Made by a program: the position numbers and the translations under genes
DNA from: PVC group bacterium
GTDB lineage: Bacteria > Omnitrophota > Gorgyraeia > B26-G9
Assembly (NCBI GenBank): GCA_024231215.1
Contig: JAAEQR010000206.1
Location: 3,112-67,111 of the forward strand
DNA length: 64,000 nt
Reading direction: 5' to 3'
Shown here: positions 5,961 to 59,367 of the stretch, piece by piece
Layout: every line of letters starts with the position of its first letter
Numbering within the stretch: position 1 is the stretch's first letter
Notes under the pieces: model-generated
Databases searched by the model: none
What the model was told of the DNA's origin: nothing
Seen by the model: the letters and a program-made list of their open reading frames with translations, nothing else

Positions 5961-6104
5961 GTACGATTTACTCAAATGACATAGAAGTAATCTTAAAAGA
6001 TGGCAGCAGGCATAAAGGCACTATAGCCGCGATTAGATATATTGTTGACAAAGCTATTGATGAAAAGCTTGAGAAGATAATTAAAGAGTTGAGAGAGGCA
6101 AAGA

Positions 6105-7088
6105 ATGAGTAAAAATTGGCTCTTTTTAAGGGGTTATTTTGATCGCAACAACAAAAAATCACTAAAAAATGATTCTGACATGTGGGTACAATTGTTTTCC
6201 AAGTTAGTCCCGGATGGCATCACAATGCCAGATAGTGCAAACGGAGCAATATGCTATGTTGATTACAAGCAGACTATGCCGCAAATGTATGAGTATTTGC
6301 CAATAATTGGAAAAGAAAAAGCAAAGATGTTAGCAAAAGAATTTGACTACGTTTTCGCCAGAGGTGGCCACAAAGAATACGAGCCAATACTGAAGAAATG
6401 TAAAAACGCATACAAAATTTATTATGGTGCAGGAGCTCGCATAGTACCCGAAAAAGATTTAGGCTACAGTCTCATATTATGCGACTCTGAGGAACAGAAA
6501 AAGAAATGCAAGAAGAAATATCCACATATAAAAAGTTCTCTTTGGATAAAACCCGCAGCAAGACATTTCAAACCTGTTGAATGTGAAAAAGAATATGATG
6601 TATGTTACGTAGCTGATTGCCATAGTAAATTTCAGGAAAAGATTAAGCGCGTAAATTGGGTGTATAAGACAGCACCGAAAGACCTTAAAATACTTCATTT
6701 GGGGAAAAGTTCTATAAAACCGCCTAAGAATGTTACTGTTAAACGAGTGCAGAGGATTGATATGCCTAAGTGGTATTCTAAGTGTAAGGTGGGAATTGTT
6801 CCTTATAAGGGGTATGACAGTTGCCCTAGAGTAATTCCGGAGATGTTGGCTTGTGGGTTACCTTTGGTTGTTATGGATAGTGTTAATTTTTGGATAAAAA
6901 AGTATTTTTTCACATCCCCTTTCAAAGGTCGCAAAATAAACAAAAATGGGTTTTGGGAAATTGTTGGTGTTTATTTAAATCCTTACAAGCACAAAATAGA
7001 TTTTGTTGGCGAATTATCTGATTACTACCAAGAAAACCTCTCTCTCAAACCAGCAGCAGAACATTTAAGGAGTTTAATTAATGGATGA
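6105..7088 (+). CDS. putative GT-B fold glycosyltransferase (GT1/GT4-like)
   Basis: C-terminal VIPEMLACGLPLVVMDS resembles the conserved GT-B E..a.G.P motif. Size 327 aa. Confidence 0.45.
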   Translation: MSKNWLFLRGYFDRNNKKSLKNDSDMWVQLFSKLVPDGITMPDSANGAICYVDYKQTMPQMYEYLPIIGKEKAKMLAKEFDYVFARGGHKEYEPILKKCKNAYKIYYGAGARIVPEKDLGYSLILCDSEEQKKKCKKKYPHIKSSLWIKPAARHFKPVECEKEYDVCYVADCHSKFQEKIKRVNWVYKTAPKDLKILHLGKSSIKPPKNVTVKRVQRIDMPKWYSKCKVGIVPYKGYDSCPRVIPEMLACGLPLVVMDSVNFWIKKYFFTSPFKGRKINKNGFWEIVGVYLNPYKHKIDFVGELSDYYQENLSLKPAAEHLRSLING

Positions 7089-25925: not shown

Positions 25926-28628
25926 ATGGCTAATTTTGACTGGCTAAAAGAGAAGAAAAGACAGGCAAAACAACAAAAATTGCAGCAGCAACCACAACAT
26001 AGTTTTGGTGCACCGGTTGGGGCACGCTATGGTAATGATACCGGTTATGGAAATGATGGTAGATTACAAACAAATATGCCTGTTATGATGGTTCGGACAC
26101 AGCAAGGGCCTAGAATGATTCATGAGGGTGAGCAGTTTAGGCCCGGTGCTAATGGTGGCGTGAATGTTATACCTCAACAGCAGTTATTGGCAGAGGAAAG
26201 ACAACACAATATACCAGGGTTTCAGACCGGTGGAAATTTTATTCCTCCAGGAGGTGGGCGTGACACCTTTGATCTTAATAAGCAACAAAAAACGCCATTG
26301 ATAGGGCGCCCTGATGATGTTAATCAGAATAAAACGCAGTTGATTGGAAGGCCGGATGACATTACAAGGCCAACACAACCACCCGTAGTTGGTGGCCCAT
26401 CACAAAGAGTGAATCAAGCAATTAGGCCAAATTTAGTACAGCCAAATATTCAGAACATAACAGGCCCAGGGCAAAAAACGCAACCAGGAATTACAGCACC
26501 TAATATTATTGACCCAATGACCGGGCAAACAATTAAAAAGGCGGGACAGGCCAGCTTTGGAACAACAACGCCTCCAGGGGCAAGAAGAGCGGAGTTTCAA
26601 TCCGTGCAACCGGAAGCAAGAAAAACAGAATTCCAATCTGTACAACCTGAGGCAAGGAAAGGCGAATTTGAATTCACTCCATTTGTTCCACCAGGAGCAC
26701 GGAGAGGCGAGTTTGAATCTACTCCATTTGTGCCACCAGAAGAGCAGCCTGAGCAGGTGTCTCCTGTAACTCCTACACCAGACGAAAGCCAGTTCAGCGA
26801 TTCAGTAAAATTTGCTTTAGCAGAATTAAGAAGGTTGTATGAAGGGGGAAGCCCCGCACAAAGAGCAGCATATGAGAAAAGAATAAATGATTTGAAGGCT
26901 ACACAAGCAACGGGCAGAAGAGTGGCCGCACAACAAGCCGCACAAGCGGGAATAGGCGGTGTTGAAGCATATACAAGAGAATTAGTAGCTGCAAGAGATG
27001 CGGGGTCACAATTAGCTGAGGCAACCGCCCAAATGGGTATTGCTGATATGCAGGTAAGAGAAAACGCATTACAGACTATGGCACAAATTGGATTGCAAGG
27101 GCAACAAATAGAACAGGCCGCTGACCAATGGCAGCAGCAATTTGATTTTGCAAAACAAAAATACGGTGATGTAGAAGGCCAGAGAATATTTGCTGATATA
27201 AATGCTGGTATGACATTTGACCAAATACAAGCAAAATATCCGAATGTGACACAAGAAGATTATGAGAGCATGCAGAATGCTACACCAAATAGCCAATGGG
27301 AAAGAGCTTTCGGGCTTTCCAAAGAGCAATGGGAAAAACAATTCGGCCTCTCTAAGGAACAGTGGGAAAAGCAATTTGGTTTTGGAAAAGAACAATTTGA
27401 GAAAACCCTTGAACTTCAAAGGGATAAGTTTGGCCTTAGCAAAGAGCAGTGGGAGGAAGCTAAGAAAAACTATGACTTTGATAAAAAGCTTAGTGCAATC
27501 AATACTCTTATGGCTCAGGGTGGTAAAGAGAATATTAAAGAGGCGTCTAAGCTGTTTAAGGACATGTTTGGCCAGGACATTGACTTCAGCAATGCAATAA
27601 ACGAAGGGAATGTACAGAATTTCAATGATGGCATGGCGCAAATGAGTAGCTATCTTGCCTCCGGTATGGACTGGAAGACAGCTAAGAAGGCTATGGAGCA
27701 AGATGGTACATTTGAAAAGCTTGGTATGTTGAAATCCGACATCAAGAAAATGTACCAGGGTATGGAATTACAATCTAATCCTATTTACCAAGCAGATAAA
27801 ATGTATCAGGACCTTGTTGATAATGGCTTTATGACCGAGAAAGAAAAAGAAGGCGCTATGGATGTAATAATGTTTATGACGAACAATCCAGAAGGTTTAG
27901 ATGTTGGTGATAAATATGTTGTTAAGGATGAAAACGGAAAAGTCCAGGGTGTTTTTGAAACTGAAGATGAAGCCAATGCACTGACAAAAAAGAACAAAAA
28001 ATGGGGTACGGAGTTCATGGAAGGCTATATTCAGTTAGCTGATCCGGGGACTGGTACTACTGGTGATACAGGGACTACCGGGGGTGGTCAAGTAGATGAA
28101 AACCAGCAATATGCAGCCTTTGAAGGCGAGTTGCCTGACCCGGATCTAATCGGGGTAGTAACACAAGCCGCATGGGTTGCAGCAGGTAAGCCCAAAACTT
28201 GGAAAGAATTTCAGAGCGCTAATATTTTGGGTAACATAGATAGCCTTCTAGATAAAGATGGAAATGTAATCACAAAAGAAAGCATTGATAAAGTTTTTGA
28301 TGCTATTCAGATGCAAAACACCCAGGCAATAAATAACTTTAAAATGGATAGTAAATTTGAAAGCACTATAGAAGATATTGAAGTTAACAACGAAAGAATA
28401 GAAGGTGATGAAGCAAAAAAAATACGAAAAAAACTTCAAAAAAACGTAGGGAAAATATTTCATTTTCCAGGAAACGAATACAATCCAGAGGGTGACTATG
28501 TAATAAAAGATGTTGTCAAAAGAGTTGTAAAAAAACAAGGTGGCGGCACATACACCTATACAATTGTTGAGGCAATGAATGTAGACACGAGAAAGATTGA
28601 AAAAATAGGCTTACCAGTAGAATATTAA
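25926..28628 (+). CDS. large virion protein (900 aa) with 11-residue periodic repeats; tape-measure-like or internal/ejection protein
   Basis: Q/P/G-rich N-terminus with GRPDD repeats. Central FGLSKEQWEKQ x4 (11-aa period with aromatic residues, as in tail-length tape-measure proteins). Mostly alpha-helical composition. Confidence 0.45.
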   Translation: MANFDWLKEKKRQAKQQKLQQQPQHSFGAPVGARYGNDTGYGNDGRLQTNMPVMMVRTQQGPRMIHEGEQFRPGANGGVNVIPQQQLLAEERQHNIPGFQTGGNFIPPGGGRDTFDLNKQQKTPLIGRPDDVNQNKTQLIGRPDDITRPTQPPVVGGPSQRVNQAIRPNLVQPNIQNITGPGQKTQPGITAPNIIDPMTGQTIKKAGQASFGTTTPPGARRAEFQSVQPEARKTEFQSVQPEARKGEFEFTPFVPPGARRGEFESTPFVPPEEQPEQVSPVTPTPDESQFSDSVKFALAELRRLYEGGSPAQRAAYEKRINDLKATQATGRRVAAQQAAQAGIGGVEAYTRELVAARDAGSQLAEATAQMGIADMQVRENALQTMAQIGLQGQQIEQAADQWQQQFDFAKQKYGDVEGQRIFADINAGMTFDQIQAKYPNVTQEDYESMQNATPNSQWERAFGLSKEQWEKQFGLSKEQWEKQFGFGKEQFEKTLELQRDKFGLSKEQWEEAKKNYDFDKKLSAINTLMAQGGKENIKEASKLFKDMFGQDIDFSNAINEGNVQNFNDGMAQMSSYLASGMDWKTAKKAMEQDGTFEKLGMLKSDIKKMYQGMELQSNPIYQADKMYQDLVDNGFMTEKEKEGAMDVIMFMTNNPEGLDVGDKYVVKDENGKVQGVFETEDEANALTKKNKKWGTEFMEGYIQLADPGTGTTGDTGTTGGGQVDENQQYAAFEGELPDPDLIGVVTQAAWVAAGKPKTWKEFQSANILGNIDSLLDKDGNVITKESIDKVFDAIQMQNTQAINNFKMDSKFESTIEDIEVNNERIEGDEAKKIRKKLQKNVGKIFHFPGNEYNPEGDYVIKDVVKRVVKKQGGGTYTYTIVEAMNVDTRKIEKIGLPVEY

Positions 28629-30356: not shown

Positions 30357-33300
30357 ATGCCTACTATGCAAGAAAAGTTTGCAGATATTGATGCATTGTT
30401 TGGTTTTGAGCCGCCAAAAACGACTAGTAAATTTGAGGAACTTGACAATTTCCTTGGGTTGCCACCAGTTGAGCAAGCGCCATCAAAAGTTATTGAGCCA
30501 GAAAAAGTAAGACGCTTTAAGGAATTTGATCATGAATTTGGGTTAGAGCCTGTTAAGGAACCTGATGCAATTGATACGCTACCTGTACCACAAGTACAAG
30601 CCCCACAATTTCAACCAGAAGTCTCCACGACAACAGCGGTGGATGTTGGAGGCCCACAAGGTGAGTTGTTGCCAGAATTTGCACCCGCAAGGGCGTTGGG
30701 CAAAGGCGTTACTTTGGAGCCTGGAAAAACAACAGAAGAAATACCGACACGGGCACCTATTCCAAGCACACCGCTGGCTGGAACTGCTGTAGGCGTAGCT
30801 GAAAGCATTCCATTTATAGGTCCCGAAGGTGCGGACGTAGAACAAATAAAGGAAGAGCAGGCTGGGTCAGTAGTTGCAGGCCAAATATTAGGTACAACAG
30901 CACAGGCACTAGCTGGTGGAGCTGGCGTTGCAAAGGTGCTTGCAAAAACAGCCGTTAAAAAGTCTCCTATACTTATGAGTGCACTTTCAAGAGTAATTCC
31001 AGCAACAACGTTAAGAGGCGCACAATCTGTTGACGAAATATCAAAAGGCAAAACAGAGGTTAAGGATGCATTGATGAATACCATTGTTGAATCGGGTGGT
31101 GGTGCAGCATTTTCAATGATTCCTGAAATTATAATGCCTCCAGGTGTAGCACAATTAATAGCCCAACCATTAGCAGATGTTATTTACCAAGCCGGTGTTG
31201 ATAAGCTTAAAGGCGAAAAGGGCGTACTTACAAAGGAATGGTTTGTGCGTCAAATTCCAACCATAGCAGCAAGTTTTGCCTTTGCTATAAAAGATGTTGC
31301 GGGTGGCAAGGAATTCATTAAACAGCAAAAGGCTATGAGAGAAGAATTAGGTATCAAAGCAAAAGAAATAGAAGTGCCACCAACAGACTTTTTACCAAAG
31401 CCACCCGAAAAACCAATCGAGGTCGAGAAGCCACCAGAGAAGCCCGTAGAGGCAATAAAAGTTGAGCCTACCCCAGAGGTCACTAAGGTAGAAACAGCGC
31501 CTAAAAAGCTTGTCCCTGAGCCAGTTGAGGCAACGGTAGAGGAGTCGCCTGTTGTGTCGACTAAGAAAGCTGGAACGTTGGAGGTGGAGGCCAAGAAGTA
31601 TAAAAGTGCTGAAGATTTTGTAAAGAGTAAAGATTTGCTATACAAAGGGTTGCCTAAAAAGGATTGGCGCACAGGGAAAGAAATTGTTGAAATAGATGCG
31701 ACTAAGGCCGGTAAAAAAATGGCTGGTTTTTTTACCACCAATCAAAAGGTTGCTCAAAAATTTGCAGATACTATAGTTAAAAAAGGCTTTGGGAAGGTGG
31801 TGGAGGCCAATGTTGATATTAAAAACCCTTTTGTTGTTGACGCAAAGGGTGAAAAAGCCAACAAATTTATGTCTGATGCGTTAGACCCGAAAAACAACAA
31901 CAAAGCAATTGTGAATGCAATTGAATCCAAAAAATATGACGGTGTAATAATAAAAAATACAGCAGATGAAGGAGATATTATTATACCACAAAAAGCCTCC
32001 CAAATCAAAACAAAAGAACAACTAACAGAAATATGGAACGAAGCAAAAAAGCCCAAACTAACACCGGAGGAAAAAGGATTTGTCGAAAAAGTTAGCCCGG
32101 AAGTTACAGTTAAAAAAGAAGTCAAAAAGCCTGAGATTAAGAAGCCTGAGAAAGTTAAACCTGTTGTTGAGAAAGAAATCAAAAAACCAGAGGTAAAACC
32201 AATAGAGAAGGATAAGCCAGAGCAATTTGAAACACCACAAAGGGAGGGGTTGTTAGAAAGTGAAAAAGGTGCCGTGAGATTAGATTTAGAAACAAGGGGC
32301 AATGTAGTTTCTGGAATGAAAAAGTTTCTCAAAAGAGAGTTTACGACAAAGGGCGACTTGCCCGAAGAAGTGTTTAGGGAAAAAATAAAAAAAGATGCGT
32401 GGGTAAATGCTGAAATAAAGGATATAGAAAATACAGTAAAAAGGTTTAGGTCAGAGGCAAAAAAAGGATATAAAACAAAAAAGCTCACAGATAAACAAAG
32501 TTTTGAAATAGATGCCGTGTTAAAAGGGAATGAAGATATATCAAAATTGCCTGAAAATGTGCGACCTTTAGTTAAAACAATGAGAAATCACATTGATGCG
32601 TTATCACAAAAAATGATTGATGAGGGTTTAGTCGAAGGAGATTTGAAGGCAAAAGTATTGGAAAATATGGGTTTCTACGCAACAAGATCATATAGGGTTC
32701 ATGATGATCCAAAATGGGCAGAGAAAGTGCTACCGGCGGTAAGAAACCGAGCAAAAGCATTTATCAGACAAGAAGCTAGTGATTTTTATAATAGAAAAGT
32801 TGAGGTTACAAACGATGTTATTGCCAATTTGCAGAGTGTTAAAACACAAATCGAAGCCAAGCTAAAAAACCCGTTGTCTGTTGAGCAGAAATTGAACTTT
32901 GAAGAAAAAATAAATGAGTTAGACACAAAAATAGATGAGCTTTTAACACAAAAAGAGGACATTGGTTTTGATGTTGAGGGTGAAATAAATGACGCCGCAA
33001 AATCTATTCTTGATATCAGGTTTGGCGAACAACGGATTTCTGAGACTGATAGAGAATTTGGGTTTTATCAAGAAAAGATTGATCGTTTAAATAAAAAAAT
33101 AGACGATTTGGCCGCTGGAAAAAGAACCAAAAAAATTGATGAGACTATAAAAGAACATGAAAACAAGATTGCTCAATTTGAAGAAAAGATTCAAAGGCCA
33201 TTGACCGGAACACAAATAGACAGTTACCAAAAAAAATTAGAAAAAATAAATAGTAGAATTGATAAGCTTGTTGAGAAAATTCCTGAATTTCAAAGAAAGT

Positions 33301-35279
33301 CTCAACCAACCGAAGGTGAATTGCGTGGTCAAATAAATGAGCTTCTATATAAAAAAGAAGCGCCTGTCAGCGTCCTTGCAAGTGGTGGCAAGTTGGGTTC
33401 AAAAAACTTAAGCATACTTAAGCGCAAGAAGGATATACCAGTAGAAATAAGATCTCTTTGGGGTGAATATAAAGATGCTGATGTTAATTACGCAAAAAGT
33501 GTTTCAAAGATGGCTAACTTGATAGCTAGTAATAGATTTTTAAATGAAGTAAAAACCAAAGGAAAAAATAAGTTCTTTTTTGATAACCCTGTGGTTGAAG
33601 GTGGTAAAAGTTATGATGTAAAAATATCAGCAGACAAATCCCCTACAATGGCACCTTTGAATGGTTTATACACAACCAAAGAAATAGAAGAAGCATTTGA
33701 CAGCATAAACAAAAGAGATGTACCGGGTACTTTATACAGGCTTTATTTGAAAGTAAATTCTGCTGCTAAATATGCAAAAACAATCGGGTCGCCAATGACA
33801 CACGTAAGAAATGTTACTGGAAACGTTGGTTTTGCTATAGCTAACGGGCATTTCAATTTAAAAGAAGCCCCTAATGCGATTAAAACTACATTTCAAGACC
33901 TAAGAGGGAAATCCGTAGGCGAAACAAAAAAATATATAAGGGAGCTAACAGAACTCGGTGTAATTAGTGATGGCGCAAGGGCCGGTGAGATAAGAGATAT
34001 AATTAAAGATGCTACACAGGGCGACTTAGATGTTTTAATTGGAACAGGCCCTAAGCATGCTTATAAAAAAGCATTAAAAGCAATAGAAAAGCTTTATGGG
34101 GCTGAAGATGATGTGTGGAAAATTTTTGCTTATGAGAATGAATTAAAACGATATAAAAAAGCGCTGCCAGATATGCCAGAAAAAGAACTAAAACAAAAAG
34201 CGGCAAATATTGTGAGGGATACCTATCCTACATATTCAATGATACCGAGTGCAATAAAAAAATTGCGTAGATTTCCACTGGTTGGCACATTTGTTTCTTT
34301 TCCTGCGGAAGTAGTAAGAACAGCAAATAATACCATAAAATTAATGGCTTCTGAATTAAAAAGCTCTAATCCAGAAATAAGAAAAATAGGCGCACAAAGA
34401 CTTGTAGGTTTGACTTTGGCGGCTACAATTACGGCGGGGCTCGGTGCTGCAAGTAGATTTAGAACAGGGACTACTAAAGAAAAAGAGGACGCAGCCAGGG
34501 AATTTATGGCCCCCTGGACTAAGAATAGTCAAATAATTTGGGCGAGTAGTATAGAAAATGGCAAAGCAAATTATGTTGATTTGGGCTATTCTGACCCTCA
34601 TTCTTATTTGAGAAAACCTTTGCTTGCTTTTTTAAATGGGGAAGATTGGAAAGAAAAAGCTTTTGAGGCTGGCGCTGAATTGCTTTCTCCGTTTCTTGGT
34701 GAAGACATGCTCGCGCAAAAGCTTTTGAATATAAAAAGAAACAAAACCCCTGATGGGCAAAATGTGTATAACCCACAAGATAAATTAACAAACCAAACAA
34801 TAGATAAGCTCAACCATTTAATAGAGGGTATGGAGCCTGGAGCAATAGCATCTTTAAGGCGAATTTATAAATCAACAAAAGACGTAGAGGGACAATATGG
34901 TTCTGGGTATGACACCAAAACAGAAGTTGCTGCTATGGGCACTGGTATTAGAATAAATGTTTTAGACACAAAAAGATCACTACGCTTCAAGGGGTGGAAG
35001 TTTTCTAGGGACATAAGAGATGCTTCTCGGTTGGCAAGAAAAAGAGGTGTTGAACTATCGTTTGAGCAAAAAAAGAAAATATATGACAGGTTTGAAAAGA
35101 CGGTACAGTCAGCAAGGATAGTAGGACTAACAGACAGGGAGATATTCAAATCATTAAGAGATTCAGGAATGTCAGAAACCAATGCTATCGCTTTTTTAAA
35201 AAACAGCTATGAAAGTATTTTGAAAATAGGCGAAAAAAAAGCAAAGTTGAAAGAAAAGCTACCGAAAGGAATAAAATAA
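30357..35279 (+). CDS. giant virion protein (1640 aa); internal/ejection or tape-measure-like
   Basis: Pro/Glu/Lys-rich spacer (PEKPIEVEKPPEKPVE), extended coiled coils and a hydrophobic Gly/Ala segment (GLTLAATITAGLGAAS). Largest ORF in the window. Confidence 0.5.
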   Translation: MPTMQEKFADIDALFGFEPPKTTSKFEELDNFLGLPPVEQAPSKVIEPEKVRRFKEFDHEFGLEPVKEPDAIDTLPVPQVQAPQFQPEVSTTTAVDVGGPQGELLPEFAPARALGKGVTLEPGKTTEEIPTRAPIPSTPLAGTAVGVAESIPFIGPEGADVEQIKEEQAGSVVAGQILGTTAQALAGGAGVAKVLAKTAVKKSPILMSALSRVIPATTLRGAQSVDEISKGKTEVKDALMNTIVESGGGAAFSMIPEIIMPPGVAQLIAQPLADVIYQAGVDKLKGEKGVLTKEWFVRQIPTIAASFAFAIKDVAGGKEFIKQQKAMREELGIKAKEIEVPPTDFLPKPPEKPIEVEKPPEKPVEAIKVEPTPEVTKVETAPKKLVPEPVEATVEESPVVSTKKAGTLEVEAKKYKSAEDFVKSKDLLYKGLPKKDWRTGKEIVEIDATKAGKKMAGFFTTNQKVAQKFADTIVKKGFGKVVEANVDIKNPFVVDAKGEKANKFMSDALDPKNNNKAIVNAIESKKYDGVIIKNTADEGDIIIPQKASQIKTKEQLTEIWNEAKKPKLTPEEKGFVEKVSPEVTVKKEVKKPEIKKPEKVKPVVEKEIKKPEVKPIEKDKPEQFETPQREGLLESEKGAVRLDLETRGNVVSGMKKFLKREFTTKGDLPEEVFREKIKKDAWVNAEIKDIENTVKRFRSEAKKGYKTKKLTDKQSFEIDAVLKGNEDISKLPENVRPLVKTMRNHIDALSQKMIDEGLVEGDLKAKVLENMGFYATRSYRVHDDPKWAEKVLPAVRNRAKAFIRQEASDFYNRKVEVTNDVIANLQSVKTQIEAKLKNPLSVEQKLNFEEKINELDTKIDELLTQKEDIGFDVEGEINDAAKSILDIRFGEQRISETDREFGFYQEKIDRLNKKIDDLAAGKRTKKIDETIKEHENKIAQFEEKIQRPLTGTQIDSYQKKLEKINSRIDKLVEKIPEFQRKSQPTEGELRGQINELLYKKEAPVSVLASGGKLGSKNLSILKRKKDIPVEIRSLWGEYKDADVNYAKSVSKMANLIASNRFLNEVKTKGKNKFFFDNPVVEGGKSYDVKISADKSPTMAPLNGLYTTKEIEEAFDSINKRDVPGTLYRLYLKVNSAAKYAKTIGSPMTHVRNVTGNVGFAIANGHFNLKEAPNAIKTTFQDLRGKSVGETKKYIRELTELGVISDGARAGEIRDIIKDATQGDLDVLIGTGPKHAYKKALKAIEKLYGAEDDVWKIFAYENELKRYKKALPDMPEKELKQKAANIVRDTYPTYSMIPSAIKKLRRFPLVGTFVSFPAEVVRTANNTIKLMASELKSSNPEIRKIGAQRLVGLTLAATITAGLGAASRFRTGTTKEKEDAAREFMAPWTKNSQIIWASSIENGKANYVDLGYSDPHSYLRKPLLAFLNGEDWKEKAFEAGAELLSPFLGEDMLAQKLLNIKRNKTPDGQNVYNPQDKLTNQTIDKLNHLIEGMEPGAIASLRRIYKSTKDVEGQYGSGYDTKTEVAAMGTGIRINVLDTKRSLRFKGWKFSRDIRDASRLARKRGVELSFEQKKKIYDRFEKTVQSARIVGLTDREIFKSLRDSGMSETNAIAFLKNSYESILKIGEKKAKLKEKLPKGIK

Positions 35280-42293: not shown

Positions 42294-42608
42294 TTAATCT
42301 CTGACATTTTTTTCAATTTCTTTTTCATAATCAAATTGTCGCTCAATTTCTTTTTTATAAATTCCAGGTTCTATTGTTTGTTTGCCATGCTCTTGATGAT
42401 CAATTTCTAAATTTTTTAACACGTTTAGATATATATTCTCATCAGACACAAAAACTTCTAAATTTTTTGTGTCATTAATAACATGAGTATGTGTTCCCTC
42501 GCCTTTTTCAACGACATATTTGTTTTTAATACGAATTTTTTTAGAATTAATCGGCAATTTTTCTACTTTTTTCAACAAAACATCTCCGTGTTGATTGGTA
42601 ATCATCAT
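42294..42608 (-). CDS. hypothetical protein (104 aa)
   Basis: Intact ORF, SD-like GGAGATAATG. Confidence 0.45.
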   Translation of the reverse strand: MMITNQHGDVLLKKVEKLPINSKKIRIKNKYVVEKGEGTHTHVINDTKNLEVFVSDENIYLNVLKNLEIDHQEHGKQTIEPGIYKKEIERQFDYEKEIEKNVRD

Positions 42609-42614
42609 TATCTC

Positions 42615-43874
42615 CTATGTTAATTGTTTGGGTAATTTATTTATTAAAGTTTTTTCATTTTCATCAGAAATTTTCCCTAGATCGTTTCTTTCAATAATTT
42701 TGAGTTTCCACAATCGCGCCTGAGCTGCTGTTGGTGTTTCTGGTGGGACTGGTTGTGCATAATAATACCCAGAAATAGAAGCATGTTCATAATACAAATA
42801 CAATCTATCCATATCGTTTGCCTTTAGATTTAACAACTCATACCCACGCCCTGTGTTCGGGTCAGTCCATTTGTTTATACATTTAGCGTTTAATTTTTTT
42901 AATACAATATCTGCACCTATTTTATTTATTATTTCTCGCTGTACATCTACATTTTTTTCAGATAATATTAAGTTTGGATCTAATTTATCACCTGGGGTTT
43001 CAACTATATTTTGAGGCACATTAACACCGTTTAACATATACAGCCCATATCCGTCACTATAACGTAGCGCCATTTTATTTTCGTGATTAAGTTGGCCACG
43101 ATTATTTATATATATATATTGAGGCCGCTCACAAACAAATACAATATTTTCAAAATTATAACACCACCCACATGATTTTGATAAAACATACCAATCATTA
43201 ATTATTTCAAAATTATAATCAGTGTTTAATAGTTTATATTTTTGATAAAATAAATAGTATCCAATCCAACTAATATCATGCTGACCATATGACCACGTTT
43301 GGGTTATATCTGTATTATCCCAGATATTATCCCAGATATTAGCCCCGATATTATCCCCGATATTATCCCTGATATTAGCCCTGATATTATCCCAGATATT
43401 AGCCCTGATATTATCCCCGATATTATCCCCGATATTATCCCTGATATTAGCCCTGATATTATCCCAGATATTATCCCAGATATTAGCCCTGATATTATCC
43501 CCGATATAATCCCTGATATTAGCCCTGATATTATCCCAGATATTATCCCCGATATTATCCCTGATATTAGCCCCGATATTATCCCAGATATTAGCCCTGA
43601 TATTAGCCCCGATATTATCCCCGATATTATCCCTGATATTATCCCTGATATTATCCCTGATATTATCCTTGATATTAATAATTATATTTGCTTGTAATGG
43701 ACTTTGGCAATACCAATATTTAGGATTTTTATATCCTAAAATATTATAAAATTTATTCCAAATTTTTTCTACATTTTTTTTATCAGTTTTTTCTGTTGAG
43801 CGTCCTATTTCTAAACAGTGTTTTTGCCACTCGTTTATTTTGTTCTCCAAATTGTCTACATGTGTTATTTTCAT
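42615..43874 (-). CDS. tetrapeptide tandem-repeat protein: [W/G/R]-[D/A]-N-I x about 30, flanked by unique N- and C-terminal domains
   Basis: Read directly: about 120 aa of a strict 4-residue period (…RDNIRDNIGDNIGANIRANIWDNI…). 65-aa unique N-terminus and about 230-aa unique C-terminus. The reading frame is continuous with the flanks. Confidence 0.5.
   Translation of the reverse strand: MKITHVDNLENKINEWQKHCLEIGRSTEKTDKKNVEKIWNKFYNILGYKNPKYWYCQSPLQANIIINIKDNIRDNIRDNIRDNIGDNIGANIRANIWDNIGANIRDNIGDNIWDNIRANIRDYIGDNIRANIWDNIWDNIRANIRDNIGDNIGDNIRANIWDNIRANIRDNIGDNIGANIWDNIWDNTDITQTWSYGQHDISWIGYYLFYQKYKLLNTDYNFEIINDWYVLSKSCGWCYNFENIVFVCERPQYIYINNRGQLNHENKMALRYSDGYGLYMLNGVNVPQNIVETPGDKLDPNLILSEKNVDVQREIINKIGADIVLKKLNAKCINKWTDPNTGRGYELLNLKANDMDRLYLYYEHASISGYYYAQPVPPETPTAAQARLWKLKIIERNDLGKISDENEKTLINKLPKQLT
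43313..43676. repeat. 12-bp tandem repeat array (about 30 copies; GATATTAKCCCN on + strand) inside the CDS
   Basis: Units differ at essentially two nucleotide positions (NGG codon 1: T/G/A; GMT codon 2: A/C). This gives W/G/R and D/A alternatives. Confidence 0.75.
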
Positions 43875-44224
43875 TTTGTACCTCTAACGTTAAATTTTTT
43901 TGCTAATTCTCCAGCTATTTTTCTCACTTCTGCTTGTTCTTGGCCAGTAGGTTTTTTCCCCGGATCAAAAGTATTACACGTTTTTTTTGTGGCTTCAACG
44001 GCCTGTCTAAAATCATACATGTTCGGGAATTTATTGTATTTCGAGTCATGGTTTAGCTTTAGCCAATTACAAGCATTATCTAATTTTTCATATGAATATT
44101 TTTCCACATATGGCCAGAGTATTGTATCAGCAAATAATTTATCTGTTCTGGCATTGGGAGAATTAAGAAGGTTTAATTCAACAACTAATTGTTTTATTCT
44201 TTTATCAAATTGTGTTTTGTTCAT
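43871..44224 (-). CDS. hypothetical protein (117 aa)
   Basis: ATGA overlap with the repeat-protein gene. Confidence 0.45.
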   Translation of the reverse strand: MNKTQFDKRIKQLVVELNLLNSPNARTDKLFADTILWPYVEKYSYEKLDNACNWLKLNHDSKYNKFPNMYDFRQAVEATKKTCNTFDPGKKPTGQEQAEVRKIAGELAKKFNVRGTK

Positions 44225-51652: not shown

Positions 51653-51991
51653 TTAAAATCGTGTATTTTCAAGAATGGCTCCACTGAGGTTAGCTCCCCT
51701 GAGGTTAGCTCCACTGAGGTTAGCTCCACTGAGATCGGCTCCACTGAGGTTAGCTCCCCTGAGATCGGCTCTGACGAAATTAACTCTACTGAGATCGGCT
51801 CTACTGAGATCGGTATTAAAAAGCCGCGCGTCACTGAGATTGGCTCCACTGAGATCGACATTACTGAGGTTAGTTCCTGCAAGGTCAGCATCACTAAGGT
51901 TAGTTTTGTGTTGTACCACAAAATCAGCATATGATATGTTTTCATCAGTTTCCGCAATCACATTGTCTGTATTCCAAATTTGATGTTCCAT
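51653..51991 (-). CDS. pentapeptide-repeat protein (16 x A[D/N]LSG)
   Basis: Read directly: [25 protein letters not shown] ... [10 protein letters not shown]. First gene of the - strand block. Preceded by the conserved leader. Confidence 0.6.
51681..51905. repeat. 15-bp tandem repeat array (CTGAGGTTAGCTCCA-type) encoding the pentapeptide repeats
   Basis: Periodic nucleotide repeat visible on both strands. It generates multiple overlapping ghost ORFs in the track. Confidence 0.7.
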
Positions 51992-52662: not shown

Positions 52663-53244
52663 TTGATTAATGTGGCTACAAGAAAGAAAATATCCTCAAG
52701 AAAACTAACCCAAATGGAGCTTGCGTTCTGCTATGAATATGTAGCAAACAAGTTCAACGGGAAGCAGGCCGCAATAGCCGCTGGATACAGTGTAAAGACA
52801 GCAGAAGTACAAGCATCGGACTTATTAAGTAGACCTAAGCTGAAACTCAAGGTAAAGCAGCTCACAGATAAGTATCTAAAAAAGGTAGAATATACCGGCG
52901 AATCCATTCTAAACGAATTAGCAATATTAGGGTTTTCTGATATGAATGATATGTTAAACGAGGATGAAAATGGTGATTTAACATTGAAATCATTAAAAGA
53001 TATGGGATATAACACACGGTGCATCCAACAATTGGAAATAACTAATACAACGCGATCATTTAAGGACTCCACAGAGACCCAAACAGACCAAAAAATCAAA
53101 TTTAAGCTGTATGATAAGAGAGCAACATTAGAATTAATAGGAAAAAACCTACAGCTATTCACGGATAGAATACACCACACAGGTGAAGTGAACAACACAG
53201 TACAAGTATACATTCCTGATAATGGCCGAAATAACAAGGATTAA
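52663..53244 (+). CDS. terminase small subunit
   Basis: Immediately upstream of and overlapping the large terminase. N-terminal HTH-like segment KLTQMELAFCYEYVANKFNGKQAAIAAGYS, typical of small terminase subunits. Confidence 0.5.
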   Translation: MINVATRKKISSRKLTQMELAFCYEYVANKFNGKQAAIAAGYSVKTAEVQASDLLSRPKLKLKVKQLTDKYLKKVEYTGESILNELAILGFSDMNDMLNEDENGDLTLKSLKDMGYNTRCIQQLEITNTTRSFKDSTETQTDQKIKFKLYDKRATLELIGKNLQLFTDRIHHTGEVNNTVQVYIPDNGRNNKD

Positions 53245-55180
53245 ACCGCAGGCCGGCCCTCAAGAAAAGTTTTTATCATCCAATGCAGATATAGTAATAT
53301 TTGGTGGTGCAGCATACGGCGGAAAGTCATTTGGGTTGTTGCTGGAATCAATTAGATATATACAAGATCCACGATATAATGGAGTAATATTTCGAAGGGA
53401 ATCACCACAAATAACATCCGGTGGAGGATTATGGGATACGGCGGGGCAGATATATCCTCATGTGGGCGGAATAGCGAACGAGGGGAAATTAAAATACACA
53501 TTTCCTACAGGGGCATACAATAAATTCACTCATTTACAATATGAAAAAGATAAGCTTAATCACCAGGGTGCACAATATGTTTTTATAGGATTTGACGAAT
53601 TAACTCATTTTTCAGAAACACAATTTTGGTATCTGCTCACACGTAACCGCCCACCATCAGGATGTAATATCAGGCCATATTGTCGATGTACAACGAATCC
53701 GGAGGCTGATAGTTGGGTAAGAGAGCTAATAATATGGTGGATTGATGAAAACACAGGGTATGCTATACCTGATAGGTCTGGAATTGTACGATATTTTACG
53801 CGAATTGACGAAGAAATCATATGGGTGGATAAGGATTGGACAGATGAAAGCGGAAATAAGGCAAGGTCTATTACATTTATACCTTCATTTTTAGAAGATA
53901 ATCCATTGGGTATAGCTGCTGACCCTATGTATCAGAGCAACTTACAAGCACAAGATAAAGTAACACGTGAACGGCTATTGAAGGGAAATTGGAATATAAC
54001 ATATAAGGGTGGAATGATGAATCCAGGCTGGTTTAAGATCCTAGAAAATTTCCCGCCTATGAAATATGTACGGTATTGGGATAGGGCCGCGACTGAGCCC
54101 AAAGACGAAAATGATGACCCAGATTGGACGGTGGGGGCTAAGTGTGGGATGCATGGAGGGGAGTTATATATAGAGGATATAGTCCGTTTCCGTGATACTC
54201 CAGCCCAAAATGAGGAAAAAATATTAAATTGTGCGGATAATGACGGCTATGATGTGTCTATTGGGTATGAAATAGAACCTGGAAGCGCTGGCGTTGAAGT
54301 CGCCGAACATTATCAAACTAAGATATTGAAAGGTTATACGGTAATATTAGACAGGCCAAAAGGTAATAAAGTGGAGCGGTGTAAGCCCTGGGCGGCACTT
54401 GCGGAACATGCACATGTATACATCAAAAAAGCCGCTTGGAATAGGCAATTTCTTGCTGAAATAGGCAGTTTTCCACTTGAAAAAAAAGACCAAGTAGACG
54501 CGGTGTCCGGTGGATATAAGATGCTGACAAGAGATAAGTATATTTTTCCAGCATTTAAATTGTCGGATACAAAAAAAATAACAATAGAATGGGAACCCAA
54601 GAAAAGTAAGGCCCATATGCACCATTACGGAGCAATGGTACAACTGCCGGACATGAGCCTGTGGATGCTGGAGGTGTTGTATCATGCAATTGATAACAAA
54701 ATGTATGTATATGGGTGCTGGAAAACCAATAATCCGGCTCCTGCGCTGGTTGTGCCTGTGATAATTAGCAGAATGCATCTCAAAGAGTTCATGATTAAGC
54801 GCTTGTTGGTCTCAGATCACATAATGCATGCCATAGCGCCAAAAAAAGCACCGTATTATTTTTACCGCAAGGAATTTATCAAGAAAAAATGTAGGCCGAA
54901 ATTAAGTGAAAGTATATTATACGATGAATCAGGCTCAATTGTGATGGCTACTGAAATGTTTATGAGGCAGCAAATAATATTTAGCCATGAAGCTAAACCA
55001 GCAGCACAGCAGGTGTCGGGCTGGACAATTGACAAGGGGAAGCCGTCTAAGGAGAACAGTGCGTATTGCGAAGGCCTGCTAATGATTATATCAGAGCTGA
55101 AAAGGATGAGAATAATACAGAAAAAGCCACCCAAACCAAGGGATTATAAAATAGTTAGAACAGTTGCAAGAAATTTTTAA
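53222..55180 (+). CDS. terL: terminase large subunit
   Basis: Walker A-like ADIVIFGGAAYGGKSF near the N-terminus. Walker B-like FIGFDELTHF. 652 aa with a C-terminal nuclease-sized domain. Confidence 0.75.
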   Translation: MAEITRIKPQAGPQEKFLSSNADIVIFGGAAYGGKSFGLLLESIRYIQDPRYNGVIFRRESPQITSGGGLWDTAGQIYPHVGGIANEGKLKYTFPTGAYNKFTHLQYEKDKLNHQGAQYVFIGFDELTHFSETQFWYLLTRNRPPSGCNIRPYCRCTTNPEADSWVRELIIWWIDENTGYAIPDRSGIVRYFTRIDEEIIWVDKDWTDESGNKARSITFIPSFLEDNPLGIAADPMYQSNLQAQDKVTRERLLKGNWNITYKGGMMNPGWFKILENFPPMKYVRYWDRAATEPKDENDDPDWTVGAKCGMHGGELYIEDIVRFRDTPAQNEEKILNCADNDGYDVSIGYEIEPGSAGVEVAEHYQTKILKGYTVILDRPKGNKVERCKPWAALAEHAHVYIKKAAWNRQFLAEIGSFPLEKKDQVDAVSGGYKMLTRDKYIFPAFKLSDTKKITIEWEPKKSKAHMHHYGAMVQLPDMSLWMLEVLYHAIDNKMYVYGCWKTNNPAPALVVPVIISRMHLKEFMIKRLLVSDHIMHAIAPKKAPYYFYRKEFIKKKCRPKLSESILYDESGSIVMATEMFMRQQIIFSHEAKPAAQQVSGWTIDKGKPSKENSAYCEGLLMIISELKRMRIIQKKPPKPRDYKIVRTVARNF

Positions 55181-56501: not shown

Positions 56502-56795
56502 GTGAAAAGTAGTACCATAACAATAGTAGAAACCGCTGATTATCCGGAAAGCTATGTGGAATTTGTCGCGTGGGTTACTAAGTGGGTTCGGAAAATACCA
56601 GAGGAGTATTTAAATAAGGCAGAAATATCATTTAACCAAACAGCCTGGGATGGTGTAGCAGTTGAAATATATTACAAAAACATGGAGATTGAAGAAGCAA
56701 ATAGGCTAATAAAGAAGTTTGAAGTAGAGGAAAAAGAGATAGCTGAATATCTTAGGCTACGTGAAAAATACAAGTACCATAGGAATTTAGAGTGA
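56502..56795 (+). CDS. hypothetical protein (97 aa)
   Basis: SD GAGAGGTGAAGAAGTG, with GTG or ATG start uncertain. Overlaps the next gene. Confidence 0.35.
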   Translation: MKSSTITIVETADYPESYVEFVAWVTKWVRKIPEEYLNKAEISFNQTAWDGVAVEIYYKNMEIEEANRLIKKFEVEEKEIAEYLRLREKYKYHRNLE

Positions 56796-57658
56796 AAACA
56801 GCAATAACAACATTAGTAAGCTCAGATAAGTTTCAACATTATCTACCACTATATATATATGTAGTACGCAAGGAGTATCCTGAGTATTTTCTAAAGACAT
56901 TTATCACGGGAAAAATTAATCCATTAGTTGCCAAGGCGCTTGATTATCTAAGGAGCCAGGGGGTGCGGTTTGATGAGCCCATAGAGGTATTTAAGGATAT
57001 TAAGCTAATTGATTCCACTGCTAACAGCTTAAGGTTCTTGACAAGTGAGAGATATTTTGAGGGCATGGATAATGTAATATATACCGATGCTGATTTGTTA
57101 TTGTTTCGAAATAGCCCCACATTAGAACAATGGCATATCAAAAGAATGAAAAAAATGAAAACATGTTATGCAGGACATCACGGGCCTTGGAGGAAAAAGT
57201 ATAGGCCGGAAATATCTAAGGCAGGTTGGAGGGGCAATTTTGAGCGGGTTTCAGCAGGATTTGTCATGGTTACACAGCAATGGTTTAAGAAGACGAGAAA
57301 AGCCAGGAAATCCTTTTTGAATAAAGCTAAGAAGGGTAAATTAGGAGGGTTCAGGGAATTTGATGAGGTTATGTTGGGGTGCATTGTGAAAAGCTCTGGC
57401 CTTCCTATGCCTCCATTTAGGTTTTGTAAGAAGCAACGGGGAATCCATCTGGGAGATTTTAAAAAGCAGATGAGTCGTAGATTTACAAGAAAAAAGAAAA
57501 TGAAAAAATGTGTAGCACCTCAACCAGTATTACAATTTCAGGCCTTGGAAAAGGACCCTATTTGGGTTGGGGTGCTAAGGATAATGGAAAAATGCCCATA
57601 TCTAATGGAAATAATAGATAATGCAAGAAAACGTTTAAGGCGGAGGTTGAAGTATTGA
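56792..57658 (+). CDS. putative GT-A-like glycosyltransferase/nucleotide-sugar transferase (288 aa)
   Basis: VIYTDADLLLF DXD-like motif. Very basic C-terminal tail. Weak. Confidence 0.3.
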   Translation: MKTAITTLVSSDKFQHYLPLYIYVVRKEYPEYFLKTFITGKINPLVAKALDYLRSQGVRFDEPIEVFKDIKLIDSTANSLRFLTSERYFEGMDNVIYTDADLLLFRNSPTLEQWHIKRMKKMKTCYAGHHGPWRKKYRPEISKAGWRGNFERVSAGFVMVTQQWFKKTRKARKSFLNKAKKGKLGGFREFDEVMLGCIVKSSGLPMPPFRFCKKQRGIHLGDFKKQMSRRFTRKKKMKKCVAPQPVLQFQALEKDPIWVGVLRIMEKCPYLMEIIDNARKRLRRRLKY

Positions 57659-57984
57659 TGTTTAGTTTCATGAGCAAAAAAAAGGCTAAAGAAGAGATAA
57701 AATCTCTGGTGAAAGACTGGGGTGACATCAGAGGTAAAGAGATAAAAAAATGGTTGAAAGACGAGCTTGAACTTTTATTTGGGTGGGGTGAAAGTGGCGA
57801 CTATTACGATTGGGACAACGACGGTGATTCAAAAATAAAAAGAATAATGTTTAATATATTTGATGAAAAGTTGGAAAAGGCACTTAAAAAAGCTGTTGAA
57901 AAACATATTAACGGTGAAGAGTTTGTTGATAAAATTATTGAACGTATTAACAGAAAGCAGTTGGGAAGGAAGAGATGGGAATAA
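57655..57984 (+). CDS. hypothetical protein (109 aa)
   Basis: ATGA overlap. K/E-rich. Confidence 0.4.
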   Translation: MMFSFMSKKKAKEEIKSLVKDWGDIRGKEIKKWLKDELELLFGWGESGDYYDWDNDGDSKIKRIMFNIFDEKLEKALKKAVEKHINGEEFVDKIIERINRKQLGRKRWE

Positions 57985-58256
57985 AAAGCGAAACTGAATG
58001 CCCTAAGTGTAGGGCAACGTATCATAACATAAAGCATATAAGAAAAGCAAACAAAGTAATGATTGTATGTTCCGATTGTGCCTATGAGTGGAGTGTATCT
58101 GCGCTGGACAAAAAAGTTATAACAGAGGAAGCGGCTATAAAAATAATAAGCAAAAGCGATTTAGCAGAAATGAAAGCAATTGTGTCGGAAAATATGGTGG
58201 AAAAAATTGTAGATGTAATGCTGAATAAGATTATCGGTTTGGTAGACGACGAATGA
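57975..58256 (+). CDS. small zinc-ribbon protein (93 aa)
   Basis: CPKC...(19 aa)...CSDC motif. Confidence 0.4.
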   Translation: MGIKSETECPKCRATYHNIKHIRKANKVMIVCSDCAYEWSVSALDKKVITEEAAIKIISKSDLAEMKAIVSENMVEKIVDVMLNKIIGLVDDE

Positions 58257-58639
58257 TACAACAAAAACCAAAAACAGCCAAGGGGTACTACTACTATCAT
58301 AGATTGATGTGGAGTAGGCTGGTTAAGGAGATGGAAAAGGGGAAAGTTCTTGACACTGGCTTAAAATACAGTGTATGGAATAGTTTGTTTGATTTTGATG
58401 GCGAGGAGTGCAATCACTGCTTTGCTTGCATGTGGAAAGATGATGATGTGACGGTTCGGGAGTATGTGTACTATATCGCCGAAGATGGCGATTGTGAAGA
58501 TGAGTGTTTGTTGCATTATACGCCAGAAGATGGAAAGTGCTTAGGTGGATTATACGAAGCAGCAACCGGAGTAAGTCAATACAGAATAGAAGCGGCTAAG
58601 GAAATACGTGATTTACCTATGAAGGATAAGTGGAAATGA
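58253..58639 (+). CDS. Cys-rich hypothetical protein (128 aa)
   Basis: CNHCFAC...CEDEC. ATGA overlap. Confidence 0.4.
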   Translation: MIQQKPKTAKGYYYYHRLMWSRLVKEMEKGKVLDTGLKYSVWNSLFDFDGEECNHCFACMWKDDDVTVREYVYYIAEDGDCEDECLLHYTPEDGKCLGGLYEAATGVSQYRIEAAKEIRDLPMKDKWK

Positions 58640-59367
58640 AATTCCAATTAATAATAAGAGGACGCAACTGCACAAAGTACGTTAAAAAATGTCTTGATTC
58701 GGTGTTAGCACAGACACATAAGGATTGGAAAGCAACTGTATGCCTCGATGCTCCTACGGATAATAGTTATGAAAAAGCTATAAAATATACGAAGGATAAA
58801 AGAATATCTGTATATCGCAACAAAAAACGGCTTGGTGTAGCACACAACATGGTAGAGACTATAATGTTAGCAGCACCTGACGACACCGATATATTAGCTA
58901 TAGTAGACGCGGACGATGAAATACCAAAAAATGCTTTACATATGGTAAATAAAGAATATGAAAAGAACCCTCTATTGAGATTGACGTATGGCTCTTTCTG
59001 GCGGTTGGACAAGAAGAGACGTACGAAGACGAGTAGAAGATATAAGAGCAATGTTAGTGTTAGAAAACAGGATTGGCATGGGAGCCATTTAAAGACGTTT
59101 CGCTATGATCTATACAAACGTATTCCACACAGGTATTTTAAACATGACAACAACAATAAGTGGTTTATGGCGGCGTCGGATTTGGCTCTCATGTTTCCTC
59201 TGTTTGATTTGTTAGGTGTTGATCGGTATAAAACACACACGAAATACGTAAAAGAAATAACGTATAAATGGAATAGAACATCGGATAAAACGCGAGGGCA
59301 TGAACAATACAGGAACAAGCAATTGATTAAGAAAAAGAAACCATTGAAGAGGTTGGAGCATGTGTAG
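58630..59367 (+). CDS. family-2-like glycosyltransferase (GT-A)
   Basis: N-terminal LIIRGRN...CLDSVLAQTHKDWKATVCLDAPTDNS ... AHNM resembles the GT2 core (S..Q.....e.i.vDD.S.D ... N.G). Confidence 0.5.
   Translation: MEMKFQLIIRGRNCTKYVKKCLDSVLAQTHKDWKATVCLDAPTDNSYEKAIKYTKDKRISVYRNKKRLGVAHNMVETIMLAAPDDTDILAIVDADDEIPKNALHMVNKEYEKNPLLRLTYGSFWRLDKKRRTKTSRRYKSNVSVRKQDWHGSHLKTFRYDLYKRIPHRYFKHDNNNKWFMAASDLALMFPLFDLLGVDRYKTHTKYVKEITYKWNRTSDKTRGHEQYRNKQLIKKKKPLKRLEHV

Follow-up and report, generated by a model that had tools for sequence, protein, structure and literature searches.

A tetrapeptide array within a DUF6745 protein

The stretch of DNA analyzed here, called the window in what follows, comprises 64,000 nucleotides of contig JAAEQR010000206.1 (positions 3,112 to 67,111) in the assembly GCA_024231215.1, which is deposited under the name of a PVC group bacterium of the Omnitrophota. 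The window, which encodes a portal protein, a large terminase, and a virion protein of 1,640 amino acids (aa), is the genome of a tailed phage; its GC content is 32–42% and it is probably a phage contig binned into a bacterial metagenome-assembled genome (MAG). Our subject is a gene on the minus strand (42615..43874), which begins with ATG and codes for 419 aa plus the stop. Its product has three parts: an N-terminal domain (aa 1–68, 43671..43874) with two helices and a strand at residues 52–56, ending in ...WYCQSPLQANIIINI; a tandem array (aa 69–188, 43311..43670) of 30 × 12 bp, encoding 30 × [R/G/W][D/A]NI with a net charge of −7; and a C-terminal globular region (aa 189–419, 42618..43310) containing a match to the Pfam family DUF6745 at aa 224–394 (42693..43205). 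By eye, the protein has no obvious signal peptide or hydrophobic segment.

The initial annotation of this locus, made from the letters of the window, had described about 30 strict 12-bp, 4-residue units in a 419-aa protein, and the open reading frame (ORF), its frame, and all 30 units were indeed found. Tandem Repeats Finder returns one array at 43313–43677, with a period of 12, 30.4 copies, 89% matches, and 0 indels. A plus-strand ORF with IPDI repeats (43299–43697) is the antisense shadow of this array and not a gene. Read in frame, the array holds six units each of RDNI, GDNI, RANI, and WDNI, three of GANI, and three singletons, namely KDNI as the first unit, RDYI as unit 14, and WDNT as the last; WANI does not occur. 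Apart from the singletons, variation is confined to two nucleotide positions, as the initial annotation had said: The first (A in 14 units, G in 9, T in 7) yields AGG, GGG, or TGG for Arg, Gly, or Trp, and the fifth (A in 21, C in 9) yields GAT or GCT for Asp or Ala. All other positions are invariant or deviate in one unit each, there are no synonymous differences among the 30 units, and the AAT codon for Asn is unchanged in 29 of them. The core 11-mer GATATTATCCC, allowing up to one mismatch, is present in 29 copies in the window, all within the array, against 1.3 expected and a maximum of 4 in shuffled sequences. The aliphatic period is exactly 4.0 across 120 residues, and Asn, Asp, and Gly together make up 49% of the array.

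The C-terminal region matches PF20530 (DUF6745) with E=1.5e-17 and 64.1 bits, against a cut-off of 27, over profile positions 28–196 of 206, and it also matches phrog_31813 (E=1.6e-10). The family motifs ExP, LH, DG, and NG are present: P251, L262, H263, D274, G283, N308, and G320 (window numbering) are at least 90% conserved among 113 sequences, and the motifs can be seen in a further alignment (A2) as well. A word-indexed search returned 116 homologs, nearly all of them annotated as PF20530, and these have the same three-part layout of a domain of ~70 aa, a period-4 repeat, and DUF6745. The N-terminal domain (~68 aa) is kept in nearly all homologs and follows the conserved pattern LTxxQE...W...CL.IG..T.P..K......Y...G...P.F.YCQSPLQAQIIINI; this domain and the variable insert, as features of the family, are derived from the present analysis and lie outside the Pfam definition. 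We therefore have little doubt that the window protein is a member of the DUF6745 family with this architecture, and the flanking domains, which the initial annotation had taken to be unique, turn out to be a conserved N-terminal domain and DUF6745 itself. DUF6745 is catalogued in Pfam but unstudied, and the protein adds a member to it: Our literature search found no papers that mention DUF6745 or PF20530, and nothing pertinent on phage repeats of the tetrapeptide or intragenic kind. Neither the tetrapeptide array as a trait of the family, nor its signature of Arg, Gly, and Trp, nor the length variation among its alleles is described in the literature that could be searched.

The family is large, given that a profile restricted to the C-terminal domain and run with HMMER against 1.84 billion cluster representatives (50%-identity clusters) found 9,539 of them at E≤1e-3, including 5,903 at E≤1e-10. 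Among the 150 top-ranking hits, most have 71–385 residues ahead of the DUF6745 match; about 20 short sequences match from near residue 1 and are probably fragments. At least 6 period-4 units are present in 76 of the 135 new top hits, with a maximum of 73. The family resides mainly in replication or accessory modules of phages and prophages from many phyla. Contigs that binning assigned to Asgard (Heimdallarchaeaceae, Hermodarchaeota) and to Woesearchaeota archaea also carry homologs (our entries P0050, L022, and L030), which suggests either that DUF6745 exists in archaeal viruses too or that those contigs are mis-binned.

Residue usage and DNA pattern of the array across the family

Period-4 arrays are found at the same insertion point throughout the family, with 0 to 73 units of the consensus [R/G/W/E]-[D/A/...]-[N/Q/S/E]-[I/V/L]. 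Over the 147 proteins with at least 8 units, which contribute 3,282 units, the first position is R in 27%, G in 23%, W in 17%, and E in 8%; the second is D (27%), A (24%), N (11%), or S (10%); the third N (57%), Q (14%), E (9%), or S (8%); and the fourth I (53%), V (28%), or L (18%). The mixture of R, G, and W at the first position is retained where the other three positions have been replaced, as in gp38 of the Mycobacterium abscessus prophage prophiGD102-1, with 47 × [W/R/G][G/D]QL, and in UOF77368 of the freshwater siphovirus MW202476, with 30 × [W/G/R/E]SSL.

At the DNA level, the codon for the first position is NGG in every lineage and there is no synonymous variation inside the arrays. 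The window uses AGG/GGG/TGG + GAT/GCT + AAT + ATC; the related loci L001 and L010 use the same codons with AAC for AAT; a Niabella prophage uses CGG/GGG/TGG + GCC/GGC/GAC + AAC; and the mycobacterial prophage uses CGG/GGG/TGG + GAC/GGC + CAG + CTC. Synonymous sites have thus been fixed differently between lineages (AAT vs. AAC, AGG vs. CGG). This pattern is one of concerted evolution, in which units are copied and homogenized faster than lineages diverge. Alongside this homogenization, the nonsynonymous polymorphism at nucleotides 1 and 5 is maintained in every lineage. The pattern suggests that the Asn (or Gln, Glu, Ser) and the aliphatic residue have a structural role, and that the mixtures of Arg, Gly, and Trp and of Asp and Ala are kept by selection. 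Site-biased mutation at nucleotides 1 and 5 may be the source of the polymorphism, but each lineage uses only three of the four possible bases at nucleotide 1, which fits the shuffling of a few unit types better than random mutagenesis.

Length alleles among near-clonal relatives

The contigs L001–L004, from four JGI samples, carry an identical array of 35 units. Contig L011 has 18 units and its flanks are 100% identical to those of the L001 lineage over 693 + 3,172 bp; L012 and L013, from two ENA samples, have 11 units and flanks that are 99.9% identical. The 18-unit allele consists exactly of units 1–8 and 26–35 of the 35-unit allele, units 9–25 being missing, and the 11-unit allele consists exactly of units 1–8 and 26–28 of a 28-unit allele (P0020), from which it differs by a deletion between two copies of a 6-unit block. 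In P0019, another allele of 28 units, the order of the units is not that of P0020. Three more lineage pairs have 16 vs. 19, 39 vs. 26, and 27 vs. 10 units, with the flanking protein identical or nearly so. All length alleles stay in frame and differ by whole-unit blocks only.

Since alleles of 35, 28, 18, and 11 units stand between flanks that are 99.9–100% identical, units would be gained and lost by recombination or slippage, and we consider real recombinational length variation likely. The alleles are most probably not products of assembly. In the pair with 27 and 10 units (L033/L034), a de Bruijn-graph shortcut is implausible in view of a junction microhomology of only 3 bp and of the 4% difference in the upstream flank; the longest exact internal repeats, 59 bp in the window and 46 bp in L001, are shorter than typical reads and than k=141. 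The stalk varying by slippage or recombination that the initial annotation had envisaged fits these alleles, and the comparison of orthologs in related phages that it had proposed reveals differences in unit number and order between near-clonal relatives. Its likening of the array to a contingency locus does not hold in the classical sense, the 12-bp unit being a multiple of 3, without ON/OFF frameshifts, and all alleles being in frame. For the window phage itself, no close relative was found by megablast of the phage collection, by exact-protein look-up, or in IMG/VR (best 51%). The repeat protein itself gave no record in an exact look-up; in the source it may have been left uncalled or been called differently.

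Predicted structure

The AlphaFold2 (AF2) model of the full protein, run with the 113-sequence alignment, has a mean predicted local distance difference test score (pLDDT) of 84.4 and a predicted template modeling score (pTM) of 0.70. The N-terminal domain (aa 11–60) has a pLDDT of 95–98, and the C-terminal domain (aa ~190–419) mostly 91–97, with 88 at its C-terminal end. The array is modeled as two helices (residues 59–121 and 133–186) joined by a loop (122–132), with a pLDDT of 50–70. When the array was run alone, with 20 in-register arrays as alignment, AF2 returned one continuous helix over residues 3–137 (pLDDT 61–86, pTM 0.29), and there is no beta structure in the array in either run. 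In the AlphaFold prediction of the repeat region, which the initial annotation had proposed as a check, the array is a helix with a pLDDT of 50–86; the narrow beta-solenoid or DNA-mimic fold that it had put forward is not supported, given the helix in both runs and the helix-favoring units of relatives.

Some relatives have arrays whose units abound in E, Q, K, A, and L (DQLR, NEVR, QNIR, [RWGE][DA]KV). Units such as DQLR, NEVR, and QNIR favor helix formation, and with these in addition to the AF2 models we regard an alpha-helical arm as the probable structure of the array, although with no great confidence. The strand at 52–56 is the sole strand in the N-terminal part, and a short strand (195–197) stands directly after the array. 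Because DSSP assigns strands only to hydrogen-bonded residues, the strand at 52–56 must pair with strands of the C-terminal domain. This pairing, together with the strand at 195–197, points to the N- and C-terminal domains forming one globular body in the model, from which the array would be a fold-back excursion. Neither phmmer nor a profile search found a relative of solved structure for the globular body, and Foldseek against the PDB gave a best E of 0.6; matches among BFVD structures were to other DUF6745 proteins only.

Genomic setting

On the minus strand, the genes follow one another in the order ERF, YqaJ exonuclease, HNH, DnaD-like replisome organizer, a 117-aa ORF, the repeat gene, a 104-aa ORF, a phrog_2776/DNA-repair-like gene, and NinB; the array lies 540 bp downstream of the DnaD-like organizer gene. 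The start codon of the repeat gene overlaps the stop of the upstream ORF in the sequence ATGA (43871–43874), only 6 nt separate its own stop from the next ORF, and no terminator-like site was found on the minus strand between 45899 and 41000. Given these three features, the repeat gene is part of an operon of replication and recombination genes with “nin-like” accessory functions. A promoter scan gave matches at chance expectation. The initial designation of the product as an early protein is plausible for a gene within such a module. The upstream 117-aa ORF (43871..44224, minus strand), coupled by the ATGA, has no family match and no homolog in related loci. The nearest genomic relatives of the C-terminal domain lie on contigs of Planctomycetes MAGs.

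The downstream 104-aa gene (42294..42608, minus strand) belongs to phrog_27831 and its product has HG[DE]V...NV[AR]D ends. Homologs lie directly downstream of the DUF6745 gene in at least five further lineages, among them L001–4/L009–13 (34% identity), L005 (30%), L017, and L033/34 (30%); a weak homolog (E=3e-4) is found at L015 5723–6037, where the corresponding ORF is unannotated in GenBank MW202476. No such homolog follows the DUF6745 genes of L006, L008, and L014, and in L016 it is present without DUF6745. An obligate pair of DUF6745 and its 104-aa neighbor is consequently rejected, the pairing being frequent yet not universal.

The company kept by DUF6745 homologs elsewhere is similar: They follow DnaB and methylase genes in L005 and L006, a primase in the Niabella prophage, and Gam/ERF/RepA in the M. 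abscessus prophage, and adjoin a uracil-DNA glycosylase in Ma-LMM01. In the L001 lineage, the homolog comes after PDDEXK/AAA_24/DUF669 and three genes upstream of a gene for Lockin (PF26760), the Lockin genes being located at L001 7840–8166, L011 7672–7962, L012 2027–2353, and L013 4313–4639. Lockin is an experimentally verified family of anti-Thoeris sponges (PMC12265669). It was not found among the window ORFs scanned.

Several other features of the window deserve mention. A 112-aa pentapeptide-repeat protein (51653–51991, minus strand; PF00805, E=2.2e-37) contains a 15-bp tandem repeat (51677–51813) and is encoded within the early/recombination module that also holds the repeat gene; phage-borne pentapeptide proteins are candidate DNA mimics, and PADLOC returned no match for this one. 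The 1,640-aa virion protein (30357–35279, plus strand; phrog_22602) carries an ART-PolyVal ADP-ribosyltransferase domain at aa 439–552 and looks “polyvalent”, possibly being injected into the host. Within the structural module, the 566-aa ORF 17813–19513 (plus strand) holds 1.8 copies of a 405-bp unit (18077–18816, 80% identity), probably a tandem domain duplication in a tail or fiber protein, and the ORF next to it carries a PKD domain. The 900-aa ORF 25926–28628 (plus strand), without a family match and possibly tape-measure-like, contains in-frame tandem repeats at 26580–26739 and 27285–27376. The short in-frame tandem repeats have periods of 36, 45, and 33 bp, and another repeat (33/18 bp) lies at 11577–11641 in ORF 11415–12764. 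Sugar-modifying enzymes, comprising an FkbM methyltransferase, a sulfotransferase-like protein, an NAD-dependent epimerase/dehydratase, and glycosyltransferases of families 1 and 2, are encoded at 1553–7088 and 56792–59367 (both plus strand), an unusual cargo for a phage of such size. The large terminase (53222–55180, plus strand, 652 aa) is covered by terminase models over aa 1–450, leaving a C-terminal extension of ~200 aa unmatched, and its best match in the phage collection is that of Methanoculleus virus L4768/Blf4 (44% identity).

Proposed explanation and function

The explanation that we favor, with a confidence slightly better than even, is that the gene encodes a DUF6745 protein with a re-tunable helical arm, specified by a recombining array. 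The array would form an alpha-helical arm folding back as a two-helix hairpin, ~9 nm long for 30 units, and projecting from a single globular body of the N- and C-terminal domains, to which the flanking strands 52–56 and 195–197 would belong. Unequal recombination, single-strand annealing, or slippage during replication, acting among the 12-bp units, would alter the length of the arm and the order of its units, and the recombination genes of the phage itself (ERF, YqaJ, NinB) may be available for this. Selection would keep the Asn and the Ile, Val, or Leu for structure, and the mix of Arg, Gly, and Trp, with Asp and Ala, on exposed positions. The product might then be a cytoplasmic accessory protein at the phage–host interface, for instance in counter-defense or in escape from recognition, with the arm as a quickly re-tunable binding surface or spacer.

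Such a function in host interaction, exerted with a re-tunable arm, is put forward tentatively and must be deemed possible rather than likely. It is suggested by the location of the gene among accessory genes at the end of a replication module, by the breadth of the family in phages, by the known anti-defense gene (Lockin) nearby in one lineage, and by the signature of rapid, selection-shaped variation. A more speculative version, which we find improbable, holds that the order of R/G/W and D/A units on a helical arm with a period of 4.0 is a combinatorial “barcode” maintained by selection, which would make the DUF6745 arrays a programmable protein surface of a kind so far unrecognized in phages. 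The shuffling of units, perhaps helped by the annealing proteins of the phage or by mutation biased to nucleotides 1 and 5, would rewrite this order so as to follow or escape a rapidly evolving partner in the host, for example an immune sensor. It would be functionally analogous to the targets of diversity-generating retroelements (DGRs) or to variable lymphocyte receptors, but through recombination of tandem units. On present evidence, we do not propose a new kind of system.

The explanation of a re-tunable helical arm needs to be qualified by several observations that weigh against it. All length alleles come from short-read metagenome assemblies, and three independent pairs of long and short alleles (L001 vs. 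L011, P0020 vs. P0033, and L033 vs. L034) show the same difference of exactly 17 units (204 bp), for which we have no explanation. The short alleles of these pairs all derive from ENA k141 assemblies. At the junction, one pair has 27 bp of microhomology, a second has a 6-unit block, and the third has only 3 bp; the exact difference of 204 bp could be due to higher-order repetition, to selection for a length class, or to artefact. The window's own lineage lacks a close relative, its best relative being 44–61% identical. With regard to structure, the helix has a low pLDDT in the full protein (50–70), and the contact between N- and C-terminal domains was deduced from DSSP strands alone. Asn, Asp, and Gly have poor intrinsic helix propensity, and their share of 49% in this particular array weighs against a helix. 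Canonical coiled coils have a hydrophobic period of 3.5–3.67 residues (heptads or hendecads), which the aliphatic period of 4.0 does not satisfy. On an alpha-helix, this period winds the aliphatic stripe by ~40 degrees per unit, and since it misfits canonical coiled coils the packing of the hairpin is left unexplained. A complementarity within the hairpin, pairing unit k with unit N+1−k as Arg against non-Arg, was seen in the window for 14 of 15 pairs at one register (corrected p=0.022) and was rejected as chance, as the pattern appeared in 0 of 15 other arrays. There is also no PADLOC hit, no solved fold, and no literature bearing on function. Finally, about 45% of the sampled family members have fewer than 8 units, and gp174 of Ma-LMM01 carries a non-repetitive insert at the array site. 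It follows that the core function can do without the array, which might be neutral.

This last point leads to the main rival explanation, rather unlikely in our judgment, according to which the array is a neutral, tolerated minisatellite, an accidental or selfish expansion in a surface loop of a DUF6745 protein, devoid of a function of its own and drifting in length by slippage. The range from 0 to 73 units without an obvious optimum, the nearly half of sampled members with short arrays, the non-repetitive insert of Ma-LMM01 at the same site, and the low AF2 confidence in the array speak in favor of it. They have to be set against the recurrence of the same period and position-specific residues in wholly different unit DNA (DNI, GQL, SSL, NEV), the 17% of Trp at the first position, the homogenization of synonymous sites while nucleotides 1 and 5 remain polymorphic in every lineage, and the fact that arrays never break frame. 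The three readings that follow are less likely than a neutral minisatellite. A low-complexity “sticker-spacer” region, with the array largely disordered and acting through multivalent Arg/Trp contacts of the cation-pi type, for example to form condensates or to bind nucleic acids within the replication compartment, could account for the dominance of R, G, and W at one position family-wide, the array pLDDT of 50–70, and the location of the gene in a replication module. We hold it to be quite improbable: The strict period with conserved aliphatic and amide or acid residues suggests regular structure, AF2 gave an uninterrupted helix in two independent runs, and the net charge of −7 is unfavorable for binding nucleic acids.

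The case for a narrow beta-solenoid, a DNA mimic of pentapeptide type, starts from the likeness of [D/A]-N-I-x to A-(D/N)-L-x-x minus one residue, apparent by eye, from the richness of the unit in N, D, and G together with the net acidity of the array, and from the true pentapeptide protein encoded by the same phage. However, PF00805 is not matched, neither AF2 run places a strand in the array, the second position, mostly polar or charged, could not be buried, helix formers (E, Q, K, A, L) are found at every position in relatives, and a rigid solenoid of 30–73 units could not bring the flanking domains together; this fold is very unlikely. The least credible reading, to which we attach hardly any weight, takes the 12-bp array for a DNA-level element, such as iterons or an origin within a coding region beside the replisome-organizer gene. 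Phage origins sometimes lie within genes, as in lambda O, and the array is only 540 bp downstream of the DnaD-like gene; yet across lineages it is the amino-acid pattern and the frame that are conserved and not the DNA, a spacing of 12 bp does not match the turn of the DNA helix, and the unit occurs nowhere else in the window. A DGR target is rejected, as the window has no template copy outside the array and the variation is not of the adenine-specific kind that DGRs typically produce in AAY codons, AAT being unchanged in all units but one of the 30 and only nucleotides 1 and 5 varying; no reverse transcriptase domain was found in the window ORFs scanned, which were part of the total. Some database matches were likewise discarded. 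The beta-helix of T4 gp5 (P0010 vs. Gp5_trimer_C, 27.3 bits, below the cut-off of 30.9) matched the repeat only and is taken to be compositional; Cas2, AriA, and AAA_15 (the latter with 17.3 bits over the repeat, against a cut-off of 32.1) were sub-threshold matches within the repeat, with zero or one significant stretch, and are spurious. PADLOC on the window returned only spurious matches driven by the repeat.

Rapid, in-frame variation shaped by selection in an early accessory gene is typical of proteins engaged in phage–host arms races, and DUF6745 is therefore a reasonable candidate for screens of anti-defense or host takeover. The strict helical periodicity of 4.0 residues poses an unusual problem of repeat structure. 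Even if the array were neutral, the locus would still be useful as a strain-level marker of variable number tandem repeats (VNTR) for phage populations.

Comparison with known systems

The nearest comparison is with other phage members of the family. Ma-LMM01 gp174, prophiGD102-1 gp38, and UOF77368 of MW202476 share with the window protein the N-terminal domain, the insertion site, the C-terminal domain, and the position after replication genes. Both gp38 and UOF77368 have period-4 arrays with W, G, or R at the first position, as in the window, but the remainder of the unit differs, being DNI in the window, GQL in gp38, and SSL in UOF77368; the insert of gp174, from a Microcystis phage, is non-repetitive and forms no array.

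Beyond the family, pentapeptide repeats have the consensus A(D/N)LXX and fold into a right-handed quadrilateral beta-helix. Proteins of this type (PF00805; Qnr/MfpA) resemble the window protein in having a short unit, repeated in tandem, in which D or N precedes a central aliphatic residue, while differing in period, which is 5 rather than 4, and in fold, as a helix and not a quadrilateral beta-helix is predicted for the window array (pLDDT 50–86). The repeat protein matches none of PF00805, PF13576, and PF13599 at E≤1, whereas the pentapeptide protein at 51653–51991, as positive control, is found with E=2.2e-37; the period of 4, kept over 30 units with no indels, is distinct from that of pentapeptide repeats, as initially annotated. 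SMC, Rad50, and SbcC proteins offer a likeness in predicted architecture, with a body of N- and C-terminal parts and a fold-back helical arm of variable length between them. They show no homology, and the arm in the window repeats in tandem every 4 residues, unlike a heptad coiled coil; by eye, the N-terminal domain contains no Walker motif of the form GxxxxGK[ST].

In contingency loci and in size-variable repeat proteins, such as the alpha C and M proteins of streptococci, recombination or slippage between tandem units generates allelic variation. The likeness to the streptococcal proteins extends to the rapidity of this variation and to a protein likely under arms-race pressure. The differences are that the unit of the window is a multiple of three, so that only size and composition change without phase switching, and that the protein is phage-encoded and, by eye, cytoplasmic, with no obvious signal peptide. 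A further parallel is domain II of Escherichia coli TolA, for which in-frame repeats in a long helical region are reported to vary in copy number among strains, with repeat number modulating stress tolerance (PMC3477136). TolA is a non-homologous, cellular envelope protein with a repeat unit other than the 4-residue one, but it has in common with the window protein the combination of in-frame tandem repeats, a long helical region, and variable copy number.

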